From Picochlorum sp. SENEW3 (Eukaryota), in assembly GCA_034226945.1 (NCBI GenBank), contig CP120454.1:1426001-1490000 (forward strand): DNA of 64,000 nucleotides, read 5' to 3'. The notes under the pieces were generated by a model. The model did not search any database and had not been told where the DNA came from. It worked only from the letters and a program-made list of their open reading frames with translations. The number at the start of each line of letters is the position of its first letter. Position 1 is the first letter of the stretch. The translations under genes were made by a program, and so were the position numbers. Of this stretch, positions 29,672 to 37,300 are shown in pieces.

Positions 29672-31339
29672 TCACTCGCTTTCTTTTTTCATATACGTTT
29701 CTAGTAAATATTTTCCAGCCGGATGTGTTATCAGGTGGTTCACCAGCCTAAACTTGATGTTGAAAGGTGCAATGGCAAACGTCAGAAGGGCAAACACCAA
29801 TAAATCAACAGATGACAACTTGCTCGCCAGAAAACCCTCCCACTGATTCTTTGGCAACGCAAAAAATGTTGTGAAAAAGTCAGATGTGTTCAACAAATCC
29901 AACTGGCACAAGAGTTCCATCCCAAATATATGGAATGATGCCTGTCTCCTATTCTCAAGTGACCACAAGGCATCCCACACCCGCTTGGAGGCATCGAGAC
30001 AAGTCGTTTCTTCAGTAATTGCATCCTTAATCGCCTCTGCCATTTTTGGAGAGTGACCAAGTGTCCTGACAATAGAATACCCCGTCGCTGGGTGTACAAG
30101 ATTTGCAGCTGCACCAAAGGCTGTGATTCTCTGGGACCCAGAAGGCAGGGGTCCACCAGTAGGAATATAACTCCACTCTTCCTCATACACCTTGTGAATT
30201 TTGATTCCCAGAGCCTCACAGCGCCTATACAAACGCCTCTTAAGCACTGAAAACGGCAGAGCAGGCTTTGTCACCAGACACGTCTCTTCCAAGAAGACCC
30301 GTGTCTTGGACTCTGGCATAGCATACAAAAACGATGGGGCTTCTTTTTCAGTATCCCACAAGCCCCGACCACCATTTGGATGCTCCCCATCCACCTGTCT
30401 TGTAGCTGTTCCGGGATACAGCCCCGTATGATGTCTCCTAAAATCCATAAACAACATCTTCTCTGGATCAAACGCATCCTCATACCCAGACACCTCAGCC
30501 TCTATTCCATACGCAGTCTGCGCAGCCGTACCTGGAGCCTCTGATTCATATTCCAAAAACCTTCCAGCAGCCCCTCCAGACGCCAATGTCACCATCTTTG
30601 CAGAAAAGGTTGCTCCGTCCTTGAGAACAACAGTGCTCTTTGAATCATCACTGCTATCAATTGACATCACAGTTCCGGGATGAAAACTCACCCCATGTTC
30701 CTTGCATCTCGACAGCAACTCATCCCTCAATTTCTTCCTATTCACTCGACCATACGCTCTCGCAACTGTCGTCTCTGTCCCCTCCCTAAAATAACACATG
30801 GACGTATCCCACACTCTATCCAGCGTGTGTTCCAATCCCAACTCTACAAACTCATCTTCCCATACACCATAATTATTCACAAAAGGCACATCATGTCCCA
30901 CAAGTATCACGCGACACCCTCGAGCCCCCAATTCAGATGCCAGTGACAGACCAGCCGGCCCACACCCCACCACCACCACATCCACAACCTGATCTGGCAT
31001 CTGCTCTGCCTCGTCCAACACAGAAGCAATCCTCGCCTGCTCTTCATCACTTTTACTCGCCTGTCGAACCACAAGAGGAGATTCATGAGACCCCTCCCGC
31101 ATATGCTGATTCAAATCCTCCACCCTGTCCTCCACCTTGTCCAGTCCTGAAGACGATGTGGTCATCATCCCATGGCATACCCATCGTCCATCCACCTCTC
31201 GTCTCCTACCATCCAAAAGTAGTCTTCTTCTCTGCGCTACAGATGATATCCAATCCCCACCACCGCAGATCCTCGTCGATTCGACCTGTGTTGCTTGCTG
31301 TGGCAGTGTCGCCCTATTCATGGATGAAATCAACCACAT
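29672..31339 (-). CDS. LCYE: Lycopene epsilon cyclase, plastid
   Basis: FAD motif VVVGCGPAG. The motifs PFVNNYGVWEDEF and AFGAAANLVHPATGYS are epsilon-type rather than the beta-type GGTAGMVHPSTGY. Also FLEETCL. Confidence 0.88.
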   Translation of the reverse strand: MWLISSMNRATLPQQATQVESTRICGGGDWISSVAQRRRLLLDGRRREVDGRWVCHGMMTTSSSGLDKVEDRVEDLNQHMREGSHESPLVVRQASKSDEEQARIASVLDEAEQMPDQVVDVVVVGCGPAGLSLASELGARGCRVILVGHDVPFVNNYGVWEDEFVELGLEHTLDRVWDTSMCYFREGTETTVARAYGRVNRKKLRDELLSRCKEHGVSFHPGTVMSIDSSDDSKSTVVLKDGATFSAKMVTLASGGAAGRFLEYESEAPGTAAQTAYGIEAEVSGYEDAFDPEKMLFMDFRRHHTGLYPGTATRQVDGEHPNGGRGLWDTEKEAPSFLYAMPESKTRVFLEETCLVTKPALPFSVLKRRLYRRCEALGIKIHKVYEEEWSYIPTGGPLPSGSQRITAFGAAANLVHPATGYSIVRTLGHSPKMAEAIKDAITEETTCLDASKRVWDALWSLENRRQASFHIFGMELLCQLDLLNTSDFFTTFFALPKNQWEGFLASKLSSVDLLVFALLTFAIAPFNIKFRLVNHLITHPAGKYLLETYMKKESE

Positions 31340-31736: not shown

Positions 31737-32612
31737 ATGGAAGAAACTAGTAAAGATGACCAAAAGCAGCAGCAGCAAGAGGAGGAGCTTGGAGGAACAC
31801 AGCAACAAGAGCCCACTATGACAAAGAAACAGATGAAGCGATTGAAAAAGGCCCAGTATCTGGCGGAGAAGAAAAAGATGAAGAAGCAAGAGCGCAAGGC
31901 CAAGAGGGCTGCCCATATAGAAGACGTGAGGGCTCGCAAAGGTCCTCTCACACCAGAGGAATTGGACAAGGTGCGACAGGCAGCGATGGACAAGGTGAAT
32001 GCGAGGAGGGCTCGGCGAGAGGCGTTGCGTGAGAATGTAAAGAAATCATTGGTGGATGGTCAGAGGATTGTGATTGATCTGGATTTTGAGTCCTACATGC
32101 ACGAGGGAGAGATCAAGAGCATCATCCAACAGATTGCCTTCTCCTACGGGATGAATAAAAACGCGGCGCATCCATGTCATTTGATTTTGAGCAGCGTCGC
32201 TGGTGCCATACGACAGGCGTTTGATCGCCAATTCAAAGATAATGGAGCATGGTATGTGACCCAGACAGACACGTCCTACCTGGACTATTTTTCCGAGGAA
32301 AAAGACAAGCTCGTGTACCTGACGGCCGAGTCTGAGAATGAAATTAGAGAGTTGGATAAGGATCGCATCTATGTCGTGGGCGGCATTGTGGATAAGAATA
32401 GGCACAAGGGGCTGTGCTACAAGAGAGCTGTGGAGCATGGGATTGAAACAGCACGCCTCCCAATAGGCGAGTACATCAAACTACGGCGTTCGAATGTCAT
32501 GTGTACAAACCACGTTGTTGAAATGCTGGTTCGATGGCAGGATACAAAAGACTGGCAGCAGGCTTTTGAAAGCGTTGTTCCAGAGAGAAAAAGGGAAACT
32601 GCATCATCATGA
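31737..32612 (+). CDS. TRM10: tRNA m1G9 methyltransferase Trm10 (SPOUT family)
   Basis: Motifs IVIDLDF, LVYLTAES, YVVGGIVDKNRHKGLC, TARLPIGEY and TNHVVEML. Confidence 0.93.
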   Translation: MEETSKDDQKQQQQEEELGGTQQQEPTMTKKQMKRLKKAQYLAEKKKMKKQERKAKRAAHIEDVRARKGPLTPEELDKVRQAAMDKVNARRARREALRENVKKSLVDGQRIVIDLDFESYMHEGEIKSIIQQIAFSYGMNKNAAHPCHLILSSVAGAIRQAFDRQFKDNGAWYVTQTDTSYLDYFSEEKDKLVYLTAESENEIRELDKDRIYVVGGIVDKNRHKGLCYKRAVEHGIETARLPIGEYIKLRRSNVMCTNHVVEMLVRWQDTKDWQQAFESVVPERKRETASS

Positions 32613-32656
32613 TGGTATCATGTTATTTATACATGCACGCAGTGGCAGTGATACAG

Positions 32657-32910
32657 TTACTGACACTATGTAACAACAACGCAAGCACATATCAATCACT
32701 CTTGCACTACCGGCATGTCTCAGGCAGTACGAATACATGGTGCAGTCATCTACTCCAAACTTCACAATGGAGCTCAGGTTCTGCCATATCATGGTGTACA
32801 TCATCGACACGCCATATCACGATTTCTTGCCGAATAGAATGCAATCATTGTCTTTCTCGACGTACCAATCGCTGCCAACAAGACTCCACCGCATGCATGC
32901 GCTTGGCCAT
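32657..32910 (-). ncRNA. Putative snoRNA host transcript with a 200-nt intron (32865-32666) and only a 17-codon spliced ORF
   Basis: Donor TTG|gtacgt at 32865 and acceptor tacatag| at 32666 bracket the snoRNA. The spliced ORF is MAKRMHAVESCWQRLCQ*, starting from an ATG in an A-rich context. Confidence 0.5.
32712..32813 (-). ncRNA. Box C/D snoRNA, candidate dual guide (25S site equivalent to yeast Um2729; possible 18S site)
   Basis: Minus strand reads GGCGUGUC-g-AUGAUGu(C)...CUGA(D')-GCUCCA/UGGAGU stem-AGAUGA(C')...GUAUUCGUACUGc-CUGA(D)-GACAUGCC. It has an 8-bp terminal stem. The D guide is complementary over 12 nt to the conserved LSU rRNA segment CAGUACGAAUAC, recalled from memory. Confidence 0.8.
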
Positions 32911-33306
32911 TGTTTTTTCTTTATCTCTCACCTCTGCAATGGGTGAAACATATTCACATGTATGTGTAGTTGGAAGTGAACAAATAGTGGTCACAAATAC
33001 GTGTGACGCCAGGGAGTGTGTGTGATGGATGCATAAGGACATGGGGCCATCCACCGTGGATGTCCAAAGTAATTCGGGGAAATTCAAATTCGTTGACAAA
33101 CAGTTGGTTCCATTCCTACAATTCTTCACCCGTGGTACACATACAATTGATATTTTACAAATATATATTGCAACCATGGGCATAACGGGGGCCATGGCGG
33201 GGTTGCACGGTGTCTCGAAGAAAGGTGCGGTATGAACCATTGAGATGTGCGATCTATCTATCGAATTTGCCATTGACGGAGTCTGAATGCAGATCGAGGA
33301 AAGCAA

Positions 33307-34923
33307 ATGTTGAAAATGGCAGTGTCTAAGAGGCCGCAGAGTGCTCCGTCTCATGATGCGAGGAACCGCGGGGTCTCGACGCAGCAGAGGCCAGGAAGAG
33401 GAGGCACGGTGCAATCGATACGAGATCATCAGTATAGCCCCAAGCTCGGGAGTCGTCCAAAGGATGATGGGTCAGAGGTGGATGCCATGAAGAAGAGAAA
33501 GAGTGGAATATTGTCATCCATGCGTGGGGTGGCTCCATTTTCTCATCAGGCAAAGAGGGAGCGGTTGTTTGATTGGAATGTTGGACATGAGGAGGCGGAT
33601 GCTGCCACGAATGCAACAGTGGCATTGTCTGATGACGATACTAATGCGCCTGCTGCATTGTCTCATGAGGATGATAATGCGCCTGCTACATTGTCTCATG
33701 ACGATACTAATGTGCCTGTTGAGACTCCAAAGGTGGTGCCTGCAATCAAACAGGAAAAGTACCCTGACAAGACAACAACAGGGAGGTTATTGTTTGGGAG
33801 CAGCACTGAGAAGGAGAAGAAGGAAGAATCGAATAAAGACGCACATCGTCCCCCTGTAGATGGCATGATGACGTTGACGACATTTCGGTCGAGGCGCACC
33901 ATGCGGCATAATCCTGAAGCACCGCCAGGCTTTTTCAACATTGGCAACAGTTGTTACCTGGGCGCAACCCTTCAGGTGTTGTTGAATGTGTGCGAGTTTG
34001 TGAATGAAATTAGTCGTTTGACTACATATATGCAGCAAAAACAGGTGCATGTTGGCGACTATGCGCTACTCCATGCGCTCTATACCATCATCCAGGAGAG
34101 AAAAACTCCTGCTCAGGGCACCCAGGATATCACCTCTGTGAAGAAGGCTCTAGAAGAGCATTTTCCCTCGGTATTCGCCGGATCTCATCAGCAGGACGCA
34201 CATGAATGTTTTGTACGAATATTAGAAGCTATAGAGACGGAAAGCAAGCGCGCAAGTGAGAGCGGCGCGCCAGTATACGAATGCCCATTTTCATTCTCTG
34301 TCATGGTGAGCATGGTGTGTACCAAGTGTAGACATAAGACTCGCATCGAGGAAGCAGGCAACGTCAACATTGGACTAGACCTCGGGGAAGATACAGACCA
34401 GCCCATTCCCATAGAAACCCTGATCTCAAAATTCTTCATGAATGAGAGAATAAGCAAGAATTGCGATGCATGCAAGGCCAAGGATGTCATTCATGCTGTC
34501 CGCAGGAGAATCAAGACATTCCCAAAAGCTCTCGTTCTGCACCTAAAAAGATTCGTGTGCAGCAATCATACCGTCATGAACAGAATGGTCTTTTCAAAAT
34601 CAAAAGTCCCAGTGCAGCCACGACGAGAGATTCCTACCAGCGTGCTCCCAACATCAGGTGCCATGAAGAAGATGCATGCTCCTTCTCCCACCATGTTGCT
34701 CAGTGGCATCATCCACCACCATGGGCCATTCATGGAATCAGGACATTACGTTGCTGATATCATCAGGAACAGAAAGAATCGAGAAGAATTCTATAGGTGC
34801 AATGATGCCTCTGTAGAAGACGTCAGCCCACATGATGATGATGTGGATCTCTACTTGGGTCGAGGTTGCCATGATTGCTACATGCTTGTTTACAAAATAC
34901 CAAGTGACACCACAGTGGTATGA
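33307..34923 (+). CDS. Ubiquitin-specific protease (peptidase C19)
   Basis: Cys box GFFNIGNSCYLGATLQ, QQDAHE, LVLHLKRF, His box HHGPFMESGHY and YRCNDASV. It probably extends upstream through an in-frame intron at ~33225-33292 (AAAG|gtgcgg...tgcag|AT) to exon(s) at ~32939-33224. Confidence 0.9.
   Translation: MLKMAVSKRPQSAPSHDARNRGVSTQQRPGRGGTVQSIRDHQYSPKLGSRPKDDGSEVDAMKKRKSGILSSMRGVAPFSHQAKRERLFDWNVGHEEADAATNATVALSDDDTNAPAALSHEDDNAPATLSHDDTNVPVETPKVVPAIKQEKYPDKTTTGRLLFGSSTEKEKKEESNKDAHRPPVDGMMTLTTFRSRRTMRHNPEAPPGFFNIGNSCYLGATLQVLLNVCEFVNEISRLTTYMQQKQVHVGDYALLHALYTIIQERKTPAQGTQDITSVKKALEEHFPSVFAGSHQQDAHECFVRILEAIETESKRASESGAPVYECPFSFSVMVSMVCTKCRHKTRIEEAGNVNIGLDLGEDTDQPIPIETLISKFFMNERISKNCDACKAKDVIHAVRRRIKTFPKALVLHLKRFVCSNHTVMNRMVFSKSKVPVQPRREIPTSVLPTSGAMKKMHAPSPTMLLSGIIHHHGPFMESGHYVADIIRNRKNREEFYRCNDASVEDVSPHDDDVDLYLGRGCHDCYMLVYKIPSDTTVV
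33622..33720 (+). repeat. 3 x 33-bp coding tandem repeat (ALSDDDTNAPA / ALSHEDDNAPA / TLSHDDTNVPV)
   Basis: Three near-identical 33-mers, read directly from the sequence. Confidence 0.9.
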
Positions 34924-35984: not shown

Positions 35985-36031
35985 TGTGATATCTTTCATT
36001 ATTATTTTAATTATTGTTGTATCATGATGTG

Positions 36032-37300
36032 ATGCGTGATATTGTTGCACTGAGCAATCGCATGCGTCATGGCATGCTGCCATGGACCCAGGGTGGATCT
36101 CGCTCTATCTCGGGATACCTATCAGGAAGCGATACTGAACATGATACATTTACAGTACTTCATCAATCGACGAAGAGTAACGCAAGGGTGGGGGTTCTGA
36201 AGACGGCGCATGGCAATGTCCTGACACCAAGCTTTGTACCGGTGGCAACGAATGCTGCTCTGAAAGCGATAGATTTTCACATGGCTGACACCGAGGGACT
36301 CCTTGATTTGGTATTTTGTAATACATACCATCTCATGCTTCACCCAGGGGCCGATGTTATTGCCGAGGCAGGGGGGTTGCATGCATTTACTGGGAGGAGA
36401 GACAAGCCATTCATTACCGATTCGGGAGGATTTCAGGTGTTTTCTCTCGCATATGGTTCTGTCCACGATGAGATTTCTTCAGGAGGAGGGAGTATTAAGA
36501 GAAAGGGAAGCATGTCATCCACCCGTGAGGGGAACAAGGTTGTTTCTATATCCGAGCAAGGGGTGACATTCAAATCCTATCGTGATGGTACAGTGATGCT
36601 CTTGACGCCCGAGACGTCTGTGGCAGCGCAGAAGAAGATTGGTGCAGATATCATCCTTCCATTGGATGAACTTCCTCCGTATCACGTAGAATCGGACAAT
36701 ATCCTGCGAGAAAGCACGCAACGAAGCCATCGCTGGGAGGACAGGTCTCTCCAAGAGCATGCAAAGAATCCACAGGGGCAGGCCATGTGGGGTATCATAC
36801 ATGGTGGGTCTAACCTCGACCTTCGGTCAGAGAGTGTCAGGTTTGTTGCATCGAGACCATTTGATGGGTATGCAATAGGAGGATCTCTTGGATCCAATCC
36901 ATCAGAGCTCTACACCATTATCAATCATGTGATGCAAATATTGCCAAGGGACAAGTCCTGTCACGTTCTCGGCATTGCAGATCCAAAAAATGTCAAGGCC
37001 CTAGCACAACTCGGATGCGACACATTCGATTCATGTTACAGCACAAGATGTGCCAGACACGGCTCCATGATGACAGACACTGGCATGATCAAGGTGAGAT
37101 CTGGAAAATACACCTCAGCCCACCACCCCCTGGAGGGATGCAACTGCTACACATGCACTCGGTACTCGCTGTCCTATCTGCATCATCTCGTCAAGGCAAA
37201 CGAACCTATTGCACAGACACTACTCTCGTTACACAATATTTCATATATGCGCAAACTGATGGACACTATGAGGGATGACATTCTTCAAAACAAACTGTAA
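36032..37300 (+). CDS. tgt: Queuine tRNA-ribosyltransferase (TGT), Chlamydia-like clade, with organellar presequence
   Basis: Motifs ARVG...TPSFVPVAT, CNTYHL, TDSGGFQVFSL, HVLGI and DTFDS. Zinc site CNCYTC...HN. Confidence 0.93.
   Translation: MRDIVALSNRMRHGMLPWTQGGSRSISGYLSGSDTEHDTFTVLHQSTKSNARVGVLKTAHGNVLTPSFVPVATNAALKAIDFHMADTEGLLDLVFCNTYHLMLHPGADVIAEAGGLHAFTGRRDKPFITDSGGFQVFSLAYGSVHDEISSGGGSIKRKGSMSSTREGNKVVSISEQGVTFKSYRDGTVMLLTPETSVAAQKKIGADIILPLDELPPYHVESDNILRESTQRSHRWEDRSLQEHAKNPQGQAMWGIIHGGSNLDLRSESVRFVASRPFDGYAIGGSLGSNPSELYTIINHVMQILPRDKSCHVLGIADPKNVKALAQLGCDTFDSCYSTRCARHGSMMTDTGMIKVRSGKYTSAHHPLEGCNCYTCTRYSLSYLHHLVKANEPIAQTLLSLHNISYMRKLMDTMRDDILQNKL

Follow-up and report, generated by a model that had tools for sequence, protein, structure and literature searches.

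The spacer between a TRM10-like and a ubiquitin-hydrolase-like open reading frame (ORF) in the green alga Picochlorum sp. SENEW3 raises the question of whether it contains an RNA gene and, if so, which nucleotides of the ribosomal RNA (rRNA) the product would modify. The spacer is 694 base pairs (bp) in length and lies within the 64,000-nucleotide (nt) stretch of contig CP120454.1 analyzed here, hereafter the window, and an original prediction had placed in it a dual-guide box C/D small nucleolar RNA (snoRNA) directed at the large-subunit (LSU) rRNA and the 18S rRNA. Our analysis concluded that positions 32712-32813 of the minus strand are quite likely to be the gene for a 102-nt two-guide box C/D snoRNA, probably intronic, of a Picochlorum-like alga. 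The dual-guide box C/D assignment is supported by a covarying terminal stem, by both guides lying in register and by a conserved neighborhood. As judged from these sequence comparisons, the element is a genuine snoRNA of the box C/D type; it belongs to an ordinary class of genes and is missed by standard RNA libraries.

The terminal stem, the C, D', C' and D boxes and the internal stem named in the original prediction were all present on the minus strand, reading from 32813 to 32712 (Table 1). The C box near the 5' end, AUGAUGU, had been described as having one mismatch, and its departure from the consensus was indeed confined to position 7, which is the least structural position of the kink turn (K-turn); the D box near the 3' end is CUGA. 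The terminal stem, GGCGUGUC/GACAUGCC, consists of 8 bp, one of them G.U, and its 3' strand begins immediately 3' of the D box. The K-turn can be fitted with a 3-nt bulge (G9, A10 and U11) followed by G12-A13, which are able to face G93-A94 of the D box. The D' box is an exact CUGA, and the C' box, UAGAUGA, agrees with the consensus at 5/7 positions and retains the GA. The 20 nt between the C and D' boxes hold the D' guide, the 22 nt between the C' and D boxes hold the D guide, and RNAfold returned both the terminal stem and the internal hairpin, with an energy of -29.9 kcal/mol.

Relatives of this RNA were sought in metagenome contigs with a pattern consisting of UGAUG, a gap of 45-75 nt, and the D guide with the D box, which yielded 70 matches in 67 loci with the same D guide. 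A stem of at least 4 bp in strict K-turn register, ending 2 nt before UGAUG and resuming right after CUGA, was present in 48 of the 70 matches; the other 22 had no stem in this register and resemble chance matches in unrelated DNA. Fifteen loci, representing 11 distinct sequences and all belonging to the 48, also hold GAUA-N-GGCA and a D' box in the register of the window. These 11 environmental sequences (L144, L148, L150, L152, L154, L180, L186, L190, L201, L204 and L205) were aligned with the window; the D' box, the spacing and the terminal stem had played no part in any selection. Among the 12 sequences, 93% of the terminal stem cells were paired, compared with 57% in shuffles, with none of 500 shuffles reaching the observed value, and pairing was 37-47% when the partner was slid by 1-3 columns. 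Compensatory changes were found at all six of the stem pairs (6/6). The D' box is CUGA in 11 of the 12 sequences and CCGA in one, and the UGAUG of the C box is invariant, yet part of the search pattern.

A covariance model, designated R1, was built from the 11 environmental sequences with the window excluded. R1 matched the window at exactly 32712-32813 on the minus strand, over model positions 1-90 of 90, with 66.1 bits (E 1.3e-13), about 22 of the 90 positions (UGAUG, D guide and D box) matching by construction; the next best match in the window scored 12.2 bits. The window shares with the R1 family both guides, the boxes, the box spacing and the position of the stem, and differs from seven of the 11 relatives, which have no hairpin after the D' box and have G at position 9 of the D' guide; six relatives have A at position 4. 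On this comparative evidence, the RNA belongs to a previously unmodelled environmental family. In viral contigs, the D-guide pattern was found at 25 loci, none with box C/D features.

The genomic setting of the relatives was also informative. In both L180 and L190, a TRM10 homologue (64% and 51% amino acid identity, respectively) is convergent with the snoRNA, as in the window, and ends approximately 100-280 nt away from it. When these two contigs were compared with the window DNA, only the coding sequence and the snoRNA aligned (82.5% over 103 nt for L180), and the remainder of the spacer was unalignable. The snoRNA in L152 neighbors an ORF resembling queuine tRNA-ribosyltransferase (TGT) and 49% identical to the ORF at 36014-37300 of the window. 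The TRM10 synteny, the unalignable spacers and the TGT-like neighbor identify the snoRNA, at the level of sequence, as an island of conservation held at the same locus across fairly distant relatives. The conservation of boxes and guides, which the original prediction had proposed as a check, thus extends in independent relatives to both guides in register, a covarying terminal stem and the gene neighborhood.

What the RNA would modify was addressed from its two guides. The D guide, UGUAUUCGUACUG (13 nt), pairs 13/13 with UUUUCAGUACGAAUACAGACC in an LSU fragment, L141; the pairing is one nucleotide longer than the 12/12 originally claimed. L141 is a 260-nt contaminant contig that matched the Rfam model LSU_rRNA_eukarya with 259 bits, and it was the only LSU sequence found in the genome contigs searched; the LSU segment expected opposite the guide is CAGUACGAAUAC. 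In viral contigs, a 14-mer of the rDNA was found at 115 loci, all in non-rRNA contexts, and a 20-mer LSU motif was found at none. The D guide together with the D box, GUAUUCGUACUG-N-CUGA, agrees with the SNORD41 consensus at 16/17 positions in the same register, and with CAUGUAUUCGUACUGCCUGA aligned on the SNORD41 consensus cucGUAUUCGUACUGGCUGA, both the guide sequence and its register correspond to that family.

The D+5 rule lands on the U of CAG-U-ACG, in the context CAG-U-ACGAAUAC. Rows 2725-2746 for the Arabidopsis 25S rRNA, in the excerpt of Table S4 of PMC8053127 that was available, read UUCAGUACGAAUACGAACCGUG, and by these rows the target is U2730. In the same excerpt, Arabidopsis numbering exceeds yeast numbering by one on either side of the site (Gm2620/Gm2619 and Um2922/Um2921), and because the offset is +1 on both sides, Arabidopsis U2730 equals yeast U2729, which is the nucleotide named in the original prediction. 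The available part of PMC3938493 states that yeast 25S U2729 is guided by snR51, together with 18S A100, also as previously indicated. Arabidopsis Um2736, the site of SnoR68, was considered as the LSU target and was ruled out, since the same rows of PMC8053127 put Um2736 6 nt downstream. The snoRNA therefore most likely directs methylation of the LSU uridine equivalent to yeast Um2729, as far as can be predicted from base pairing.

Sequences resembling SNORD41 were also observed in other environmental contigs. L172 (550-1142, minus) carries three tandem SNORD41-like copies approximately 230-290 nt apart, with scores of 34-36 bits against a gathering threshold of 41, in what is a eukaryotic snoRNA cluster, and L199 carries two SNORD41-like copies approximately 150 nt apart. 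The consensus of sno_ZL2 (RF02724; L157 and L154), a family outside the SNORD41 clan, ends in GuauuCguACugUCUGA, and it is therefore apparently a second Rfam family with this LSU guide.

The D' guide, UGAUAUGGCAGAA, pairs 12/13 with the 18S segment UUCUGCCCUAUCA, the sole mismatch being U.C at position 9 counted from D'. PMC8125830 (appendices A, D and E) prints this segment for a haptophyte and for two green algae, and it is also found in the Arabidopsis 18S rRNA, in the portion of Table S3 of PMC8053127 that was available, and in a diatom 18S primer (PMC12048817); the 12/13 pairing of the original prediction is thereby borne out in printed green-algal, haptophyte and Arabidopsis sequences. 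When the literature was searched for variants of the 18S target (CTGCCATATCA, TTTTGCCCTATCA and others), the papers that turned up were all unrelated; a 24-mer 18S motif had no occurrence in viral contigs, and the 18S motif had one match in the genome of L141, on a large bacterial contig, so that no 18S piece with the motif was found in that genome.

In the rows of PMC8053127 that cover this region, C309, U310 and G311 agree with a hand count that identifies the D'+5 target as U310 of the Arabidopsis 18S rRNA, and C418 is given as the U14 site. The target is the U of UUC-U-GCC, in the context UUC-U-GCCCUAUCA. We take the human U14 site to be C462, and with C418 aligned to this position, at an offset of 44, Arabidopsis U310 equals human U354. 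The earlier assignment to approximately human Um354 is accordingly supported, in part through this alignment of the U14 sites. Passages of PMC7668251 and PMC8393311 document the methylation Um354 of the small-subunit (SSU) rRNA for human, mouse and zebrafish and name SNORD-90 as its guide. By this correspondence, the snoRNA probably also directs methylation of the 18S uridine that matches vertebrate Um354.

The letters of the D' guide vary among the 12 aligned sequences. At position 9, the mismatched U of the window recurs in its closest relatives (L180, L150 and L152), L190 carries A, and the other seven have G, which gives perfect pairing. Position 4 is G in 6/12 and A in 6/12 (L144, L148, L186, L201, L204 and L205); in the members with A, either the 18S rRNA differs or the guide has another target. 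The window, L150 and L152 have in common, letter for letter, a block that includes the guide, AUGAUAUGGCAGAA, and as the stems and spacers of these three differ, the D' guide, mismatch included, looks constrained. The original prediction had suggested that the pairing of these two targets in one RNA might be lineage-specific. The guide pair was found in 11 distinct environmental sequences, and the carriers include organisms whose neighboring proteins are only 49-64% identical to those of the window, so that the suggestion can hold at most for a wider clade.

A hairpin follows directly 3' of the D' box in five of the 12 members (the window, L180, L190, L150 and L152), with differing stem letters, and is followed by a C'-like box, and the other seven members have a short unstructured spacer after D'. 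By eye, the C' boxes after the hairpin are UAGAUGA in the window, GUGCUGA in L180 and GUGAAGA in L150 and L152, those of the relatives standing in the same place and being better than that of the window. A 14-nt block in the hairpin loop, CAUUGUGAAGUUUG (window 32759-32772, minus strand), is identical in four of the five hairpin members (the window, L180, L150 and L152), and the stem beneath it changes (CUCCA/UGGAG vs CGCA/UGCG). No target for the loop was seen by eye in nearby rRNA; the loop may serve in accessory pairing or in binding.

The origin of the RNA was examined in sequencing runs. In run X2, positions 32599 and 32880 are connected by one contig (depth 59.6) through 13 intervening letters, the first eight of which equal window 32867-32874 (8/8), and the true skip therefore runs from 32599/32600 to 32865/32866 and comprises 267 nt. 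Its ends read CT..AC on the plus strand and hence GT..AG on the minus strand, with G/GUACGU and UGCAG/ at the junctions (the slash marks the splice site). The snoRNA would begin 52 nt after the 5' splice site and end 113 nt before the 3' splice site of this putative minus-strand intron, and such a placement is classic for intronic snoRNAs. A second skip in the same contig, also GT..AG, lies on the plus strand just upstream of the hydrolase-like start codon (Table 1); the hydrolase-like gene therefore includes a 5' exon within the spacer and may in fact start farther upstream. Since one contig shows introns of both strands, it must merge transcripts of both strands. Candidate 5' splice sites were seen by eye 60-75 nt upstream of the snoRNA in L180 (AAG/GUAUGG) and L190 (AAA/GUGAGU). 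None of the runs matching the surrounding 4.5 kb is on record as RNA. An intronic origin of the snoRNA is moderately favored by these observations.

Run X1, probably DNA (depth approximately 6), contained a 168-nt contig covering 32711-32878 with three differences from the window. At the predicted 3' end of the snoRNA this contig extends exactly one base further, and at its other end it passes the putative 5' splice site by 12 nt; at such low coverage, this may be coincidence.

In the proposed mechanism, the C and D boxes, joined by the 8-bp terminal stem, would form a K-turn that would recruit Snu13, Nop56, Nop58 and fibrillarin, as is expected from the family. The D guide would place fibrillarin on the U of the CAG-U-ACG segment, at the yeast Um2729/snR51 position, and the D' guide, paired with the 18S segment, would direct methylation of the U of UUC-U-GCC, at the vertebrate Um354 position. 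The RNA would probably be released from the 267-nt intron of a spliced, apparently non-coding minus-strand transcript, and this host transcript would run antisense into the 3' end of the TRM10-like gene.

Several observations weigh against the dual-guide, intronic interpretation and are considered here together with the explanations that they might favor. There were no Rfam matches at gathering thresholds in the whole window, and at permissive thresholds there were only weak ones; SNORD41 (RF00588) scored 16.6 bits against its gathering threshold of 41, in a local match at model positions 46-65, so that membership by score failed, and SNORD90 did not turn up in the permissive scans. The fold z-score was only -1.68 (RNAfold energy). 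Positions 32648-32863 had no contig cover in runs X2, X7 and X10, which are not on record as RNA and whose gap is not evidence on expression. When the window was scanned for CUGA together with a C box deviating at no more than one letter and a flanking stem of 8 bp or longer, three sites were found; 40 dinucleotide shuffles averaged 0.8 such sites and gave 3 at most, so that the count is not significant alone. The other two sites, which combine both boxes with stems of 8-9 bp, were taken as chance and lie inside long ORFs: 36029-36138 (plus) in the queuine tRNA-ribosyltransferase-like ORF and 60053-59975 (minus) in a helicase-like coding region. Because boxes and stem are insufficient alone, the case beyond chance rests on the guides and on conservation, and in the relatives the D guide, the D box and UGAUG match by construction, being the search pattern, and the choice of the 15 loci had itself drawn on eight D'-guide positions. 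A chance constellation of motifs in intergenic DNA, with no RNA gene, is nevertheless extremely improbable in our estimation, given the 66-bit match to a model built from other organisms, the compensatory changes at every stem pair, the synteny conserved amid unalignable spacers, and the D guide, which pairs 13/13 and in proper register with a known methylation site.

Both guide pairings rest on the rRNA of other organisms, and in the available rows of PMC8053127 the Arabidopsis nucleotides 25S U2730 (Table S4) and 18S U310 are scored as unmethylated, with no guide assigned. An alternative explanation is that the snoRNA is real and effectively single-guide for rRNA, acting through the D guide only, with the D' guide inactive, directed at another RNA or making a chaperone-type contact. 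The U.C mismatch at position 9, which the window has against green-algal 18S rRNA, falls inside the 10-bp maximum guide-substrate duplex window given in the consulted part of PMC8053127; position 9 varies (U in four, A in one, G in seven); the A found at position 4 in half of the members would be an A.C mismatch beside the target if their 18S rRNA is standard (UUUC-U-GCC); the 18S site lacks methylation in Arabidopsis; and the perfect complement of the guide, GCCATATC, has no occurrence in the algal 18S sequences printed in PMC8125830. We regard this explanation as unlikely, since 13-14 nt of the D' block are unchanged among the window, L150 and L152, and almost unchanged in L180, amid differing stems and spacers, the unselected D' CUGA is in register in 11 of the 12 sequences, seven members have the perfect G at position 9, and the predicted 18S nucleotide is a documented vertebrate ribose-methylation site in the available text of PMC7668251 and PMC8393311. 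The same degree of doubt applies to the possibility that the snoRNA gene stands alone and is transcribed from a separate promoter within the spacer, the X2 junction being a 267-bp deletion or divergence, or an assembly artefact. The junction is found in a single contig of one run that is only guessed to be RNA, the contig represents a diverged strain or species (36 letter differences and 10 gaps in the flanking 343 nt), both skips could instead be deletions in another strain, the contig includes an intron of the opposite strand, and the spliced minus-strand product has no convincing ORF. Release from an intron is preferred, since the re-registered skip has canonical GT..AG ends on the strand of the snoRNA, the second skip is canonical too and two chance canonical deletions are unlikely, and the syntenic relatives retain the snoRNA here, as would not be expected of a dispensable indel.

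The neighboring genes are listed in Table 1, and the window is compact and intron-poor. In the strain of run X10, small deletions were seen in the 3' untranslated region of the TRM10-like gene, from window 32632 onward on the plus strand (loose-end consensus). In X2, the spacer at 32880-33222 was approximately 10% different with 10 gaps, compared with coding sequence that was 98-99% alike. From these alignments, intergenic DNA diverges fast between the sampled strains, unlike coding sequence.

Table 1. Coordinates of the predicted snoRNA, its parts and the surrounding features in the window
Feature	Position	Strand	Remarks
Whole box C/D snoRNA	32712..32813	minus	102 nt, read 32813->32712; exact R1 model coordinates
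Terminal stem, 5' strand GGCGUGUC	32806..32813	minus	RNA 1-8; pairs with 32712-32719
C box AUGAUGU	32798..32804	minus	RNA 10-16; one mismatch, position 7
D' guide UGAUAUGGCAGAA	32779..32791	minus	RNA 23-35; 5th nt upstream of D' is A (32782)
D' guide mismatch, position 9, U	32786	minus	
D' box CUGA	32774..32777	minus	RNA 37-40
Hairpin GCUCCA/UGGAGU between D' and C'	32752..32773	minus	RNA 41-62 (stem 41-46/57-62), 10-nt loop; predicted
C' box AGAUGA	32746..32751	minus	RNA 63-68; degenerate, UAGAUGA vs RUGAUGA
D guide UGUAUUCGUACUG	32725..32737	minus	RNA 77-89; 5th nt upstream of D is A (32728)
D box CUGA	32720..32723	minus	RNA 91-94
Terminal stem, 3' strand GACAUGCC	32712..32719	minus	RNA 95-102
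Putative host intron	32599..32865	minus	267 nt, GUACGU...UGCAG, boundary ambiguous by 1 nt; one X2 contig
Intron	33225-33292	plus	68 nt, GT..AG; absent from the same X2 contig; just upstream of the hydrolase-like ATG
Lycopene epsilon-cyclase ORF	29672-31339	minus	99% identical to a Picochlorum sp. protein; next named relatives are other green algae
TRM10-like ORF	31737-32612	plus	Label by eye
Ubiquitin-hydrolase-like ORF	33307-34923	plus	Label by eye
Queuine-tRNA-ribosyltransferase (TGT)-like ORF	36014-37300		49% identical to the L152 neighbor

Among known snoRNAs, vertebrate U41, SNORD41 (RF00588, clan CL00058), has the same box C/D architecture, LSU guide, register and LSU uridine as the RNA of the window. 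It differs in being approximately 70 nt in length, compared with 102 nt, and in having a consensus with no recognizable 18S guide upstream of D'; its human target is 28S U4276. Yeast snR51 is likewise a dual-guide box C/D snoRNA, with the LSU target 25S U2729 shared through the numbering, whereas its second target, in the passages available, is 18S A100 in place of the U of UUC-U-GCC; this comparison is one of targets and not of sequence. Vertebrate SNORD90 guides SSU-Um354, the same uridine as the D' guide, a likeness of position that depends in part on the human U14 site; it is a separate RNA, compared by target only, and is not joined to a SNORD41-type guide as in the window. Arabidopsis SnoR68 (25S Um2736) acts in the same LSU hairpin as the D guide and, by the available rows, methylates a different uridine, 6 nt downstream of the predicted target (CGAA-U-ACG). 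Among the papers searched, none named both SNORD41 and snR51.

The Arabidopsis nucleotides U2730, methylated in yeast, and U310, methylated in vertebrates, are both unmethylated, which suggests loss in land plants. Tentatively, and with a low probability, one RNA in chlorophytes and other eukaryotes may guide both the ancient LSU snR51/SNORD41 site and the SSU Um354 site, which are served by two snoRNAs in vertebrates and have both lost methylation in Arabidopsis. The position-9 mismatch, fixed in the subgroup to which the window belongs, would then be under purifying selection and could mean sub-stoichiometric, tunable 18S methylation or a non-rRNA target, and the conserved hairpin loop could be an accessory pairing or protein-binding element.

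In conclusion, the gene was missed by Rfam at curated thresholds and would fill a gap in green-algal annotation, and R1 together with the 48 stem-bearing environmental matches could help to annotate guides of this family in the genomes of protists. The known working of box C/D snoRNAs is unchanged, as the RNA would, by analogy, act like any methylation-guide member. The conserved guide mismatch offers a small natural experiment on the tolerance of box C/D guides for mispairing, and one RNA unites two targets that vertebrates divide between two snoRNAs. Two ribose methylations are predicted in the ribosome of the alga, both absent in Arabidopsis, the LSU site being known in yeast and, by the guide consensus, in vertebrates, and the 18S site being known in vertebrates. 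The finding is thus relevant to the question of which rRNA methylations were already present in the eukaryotic ancestor and which have disappeared in land plants.

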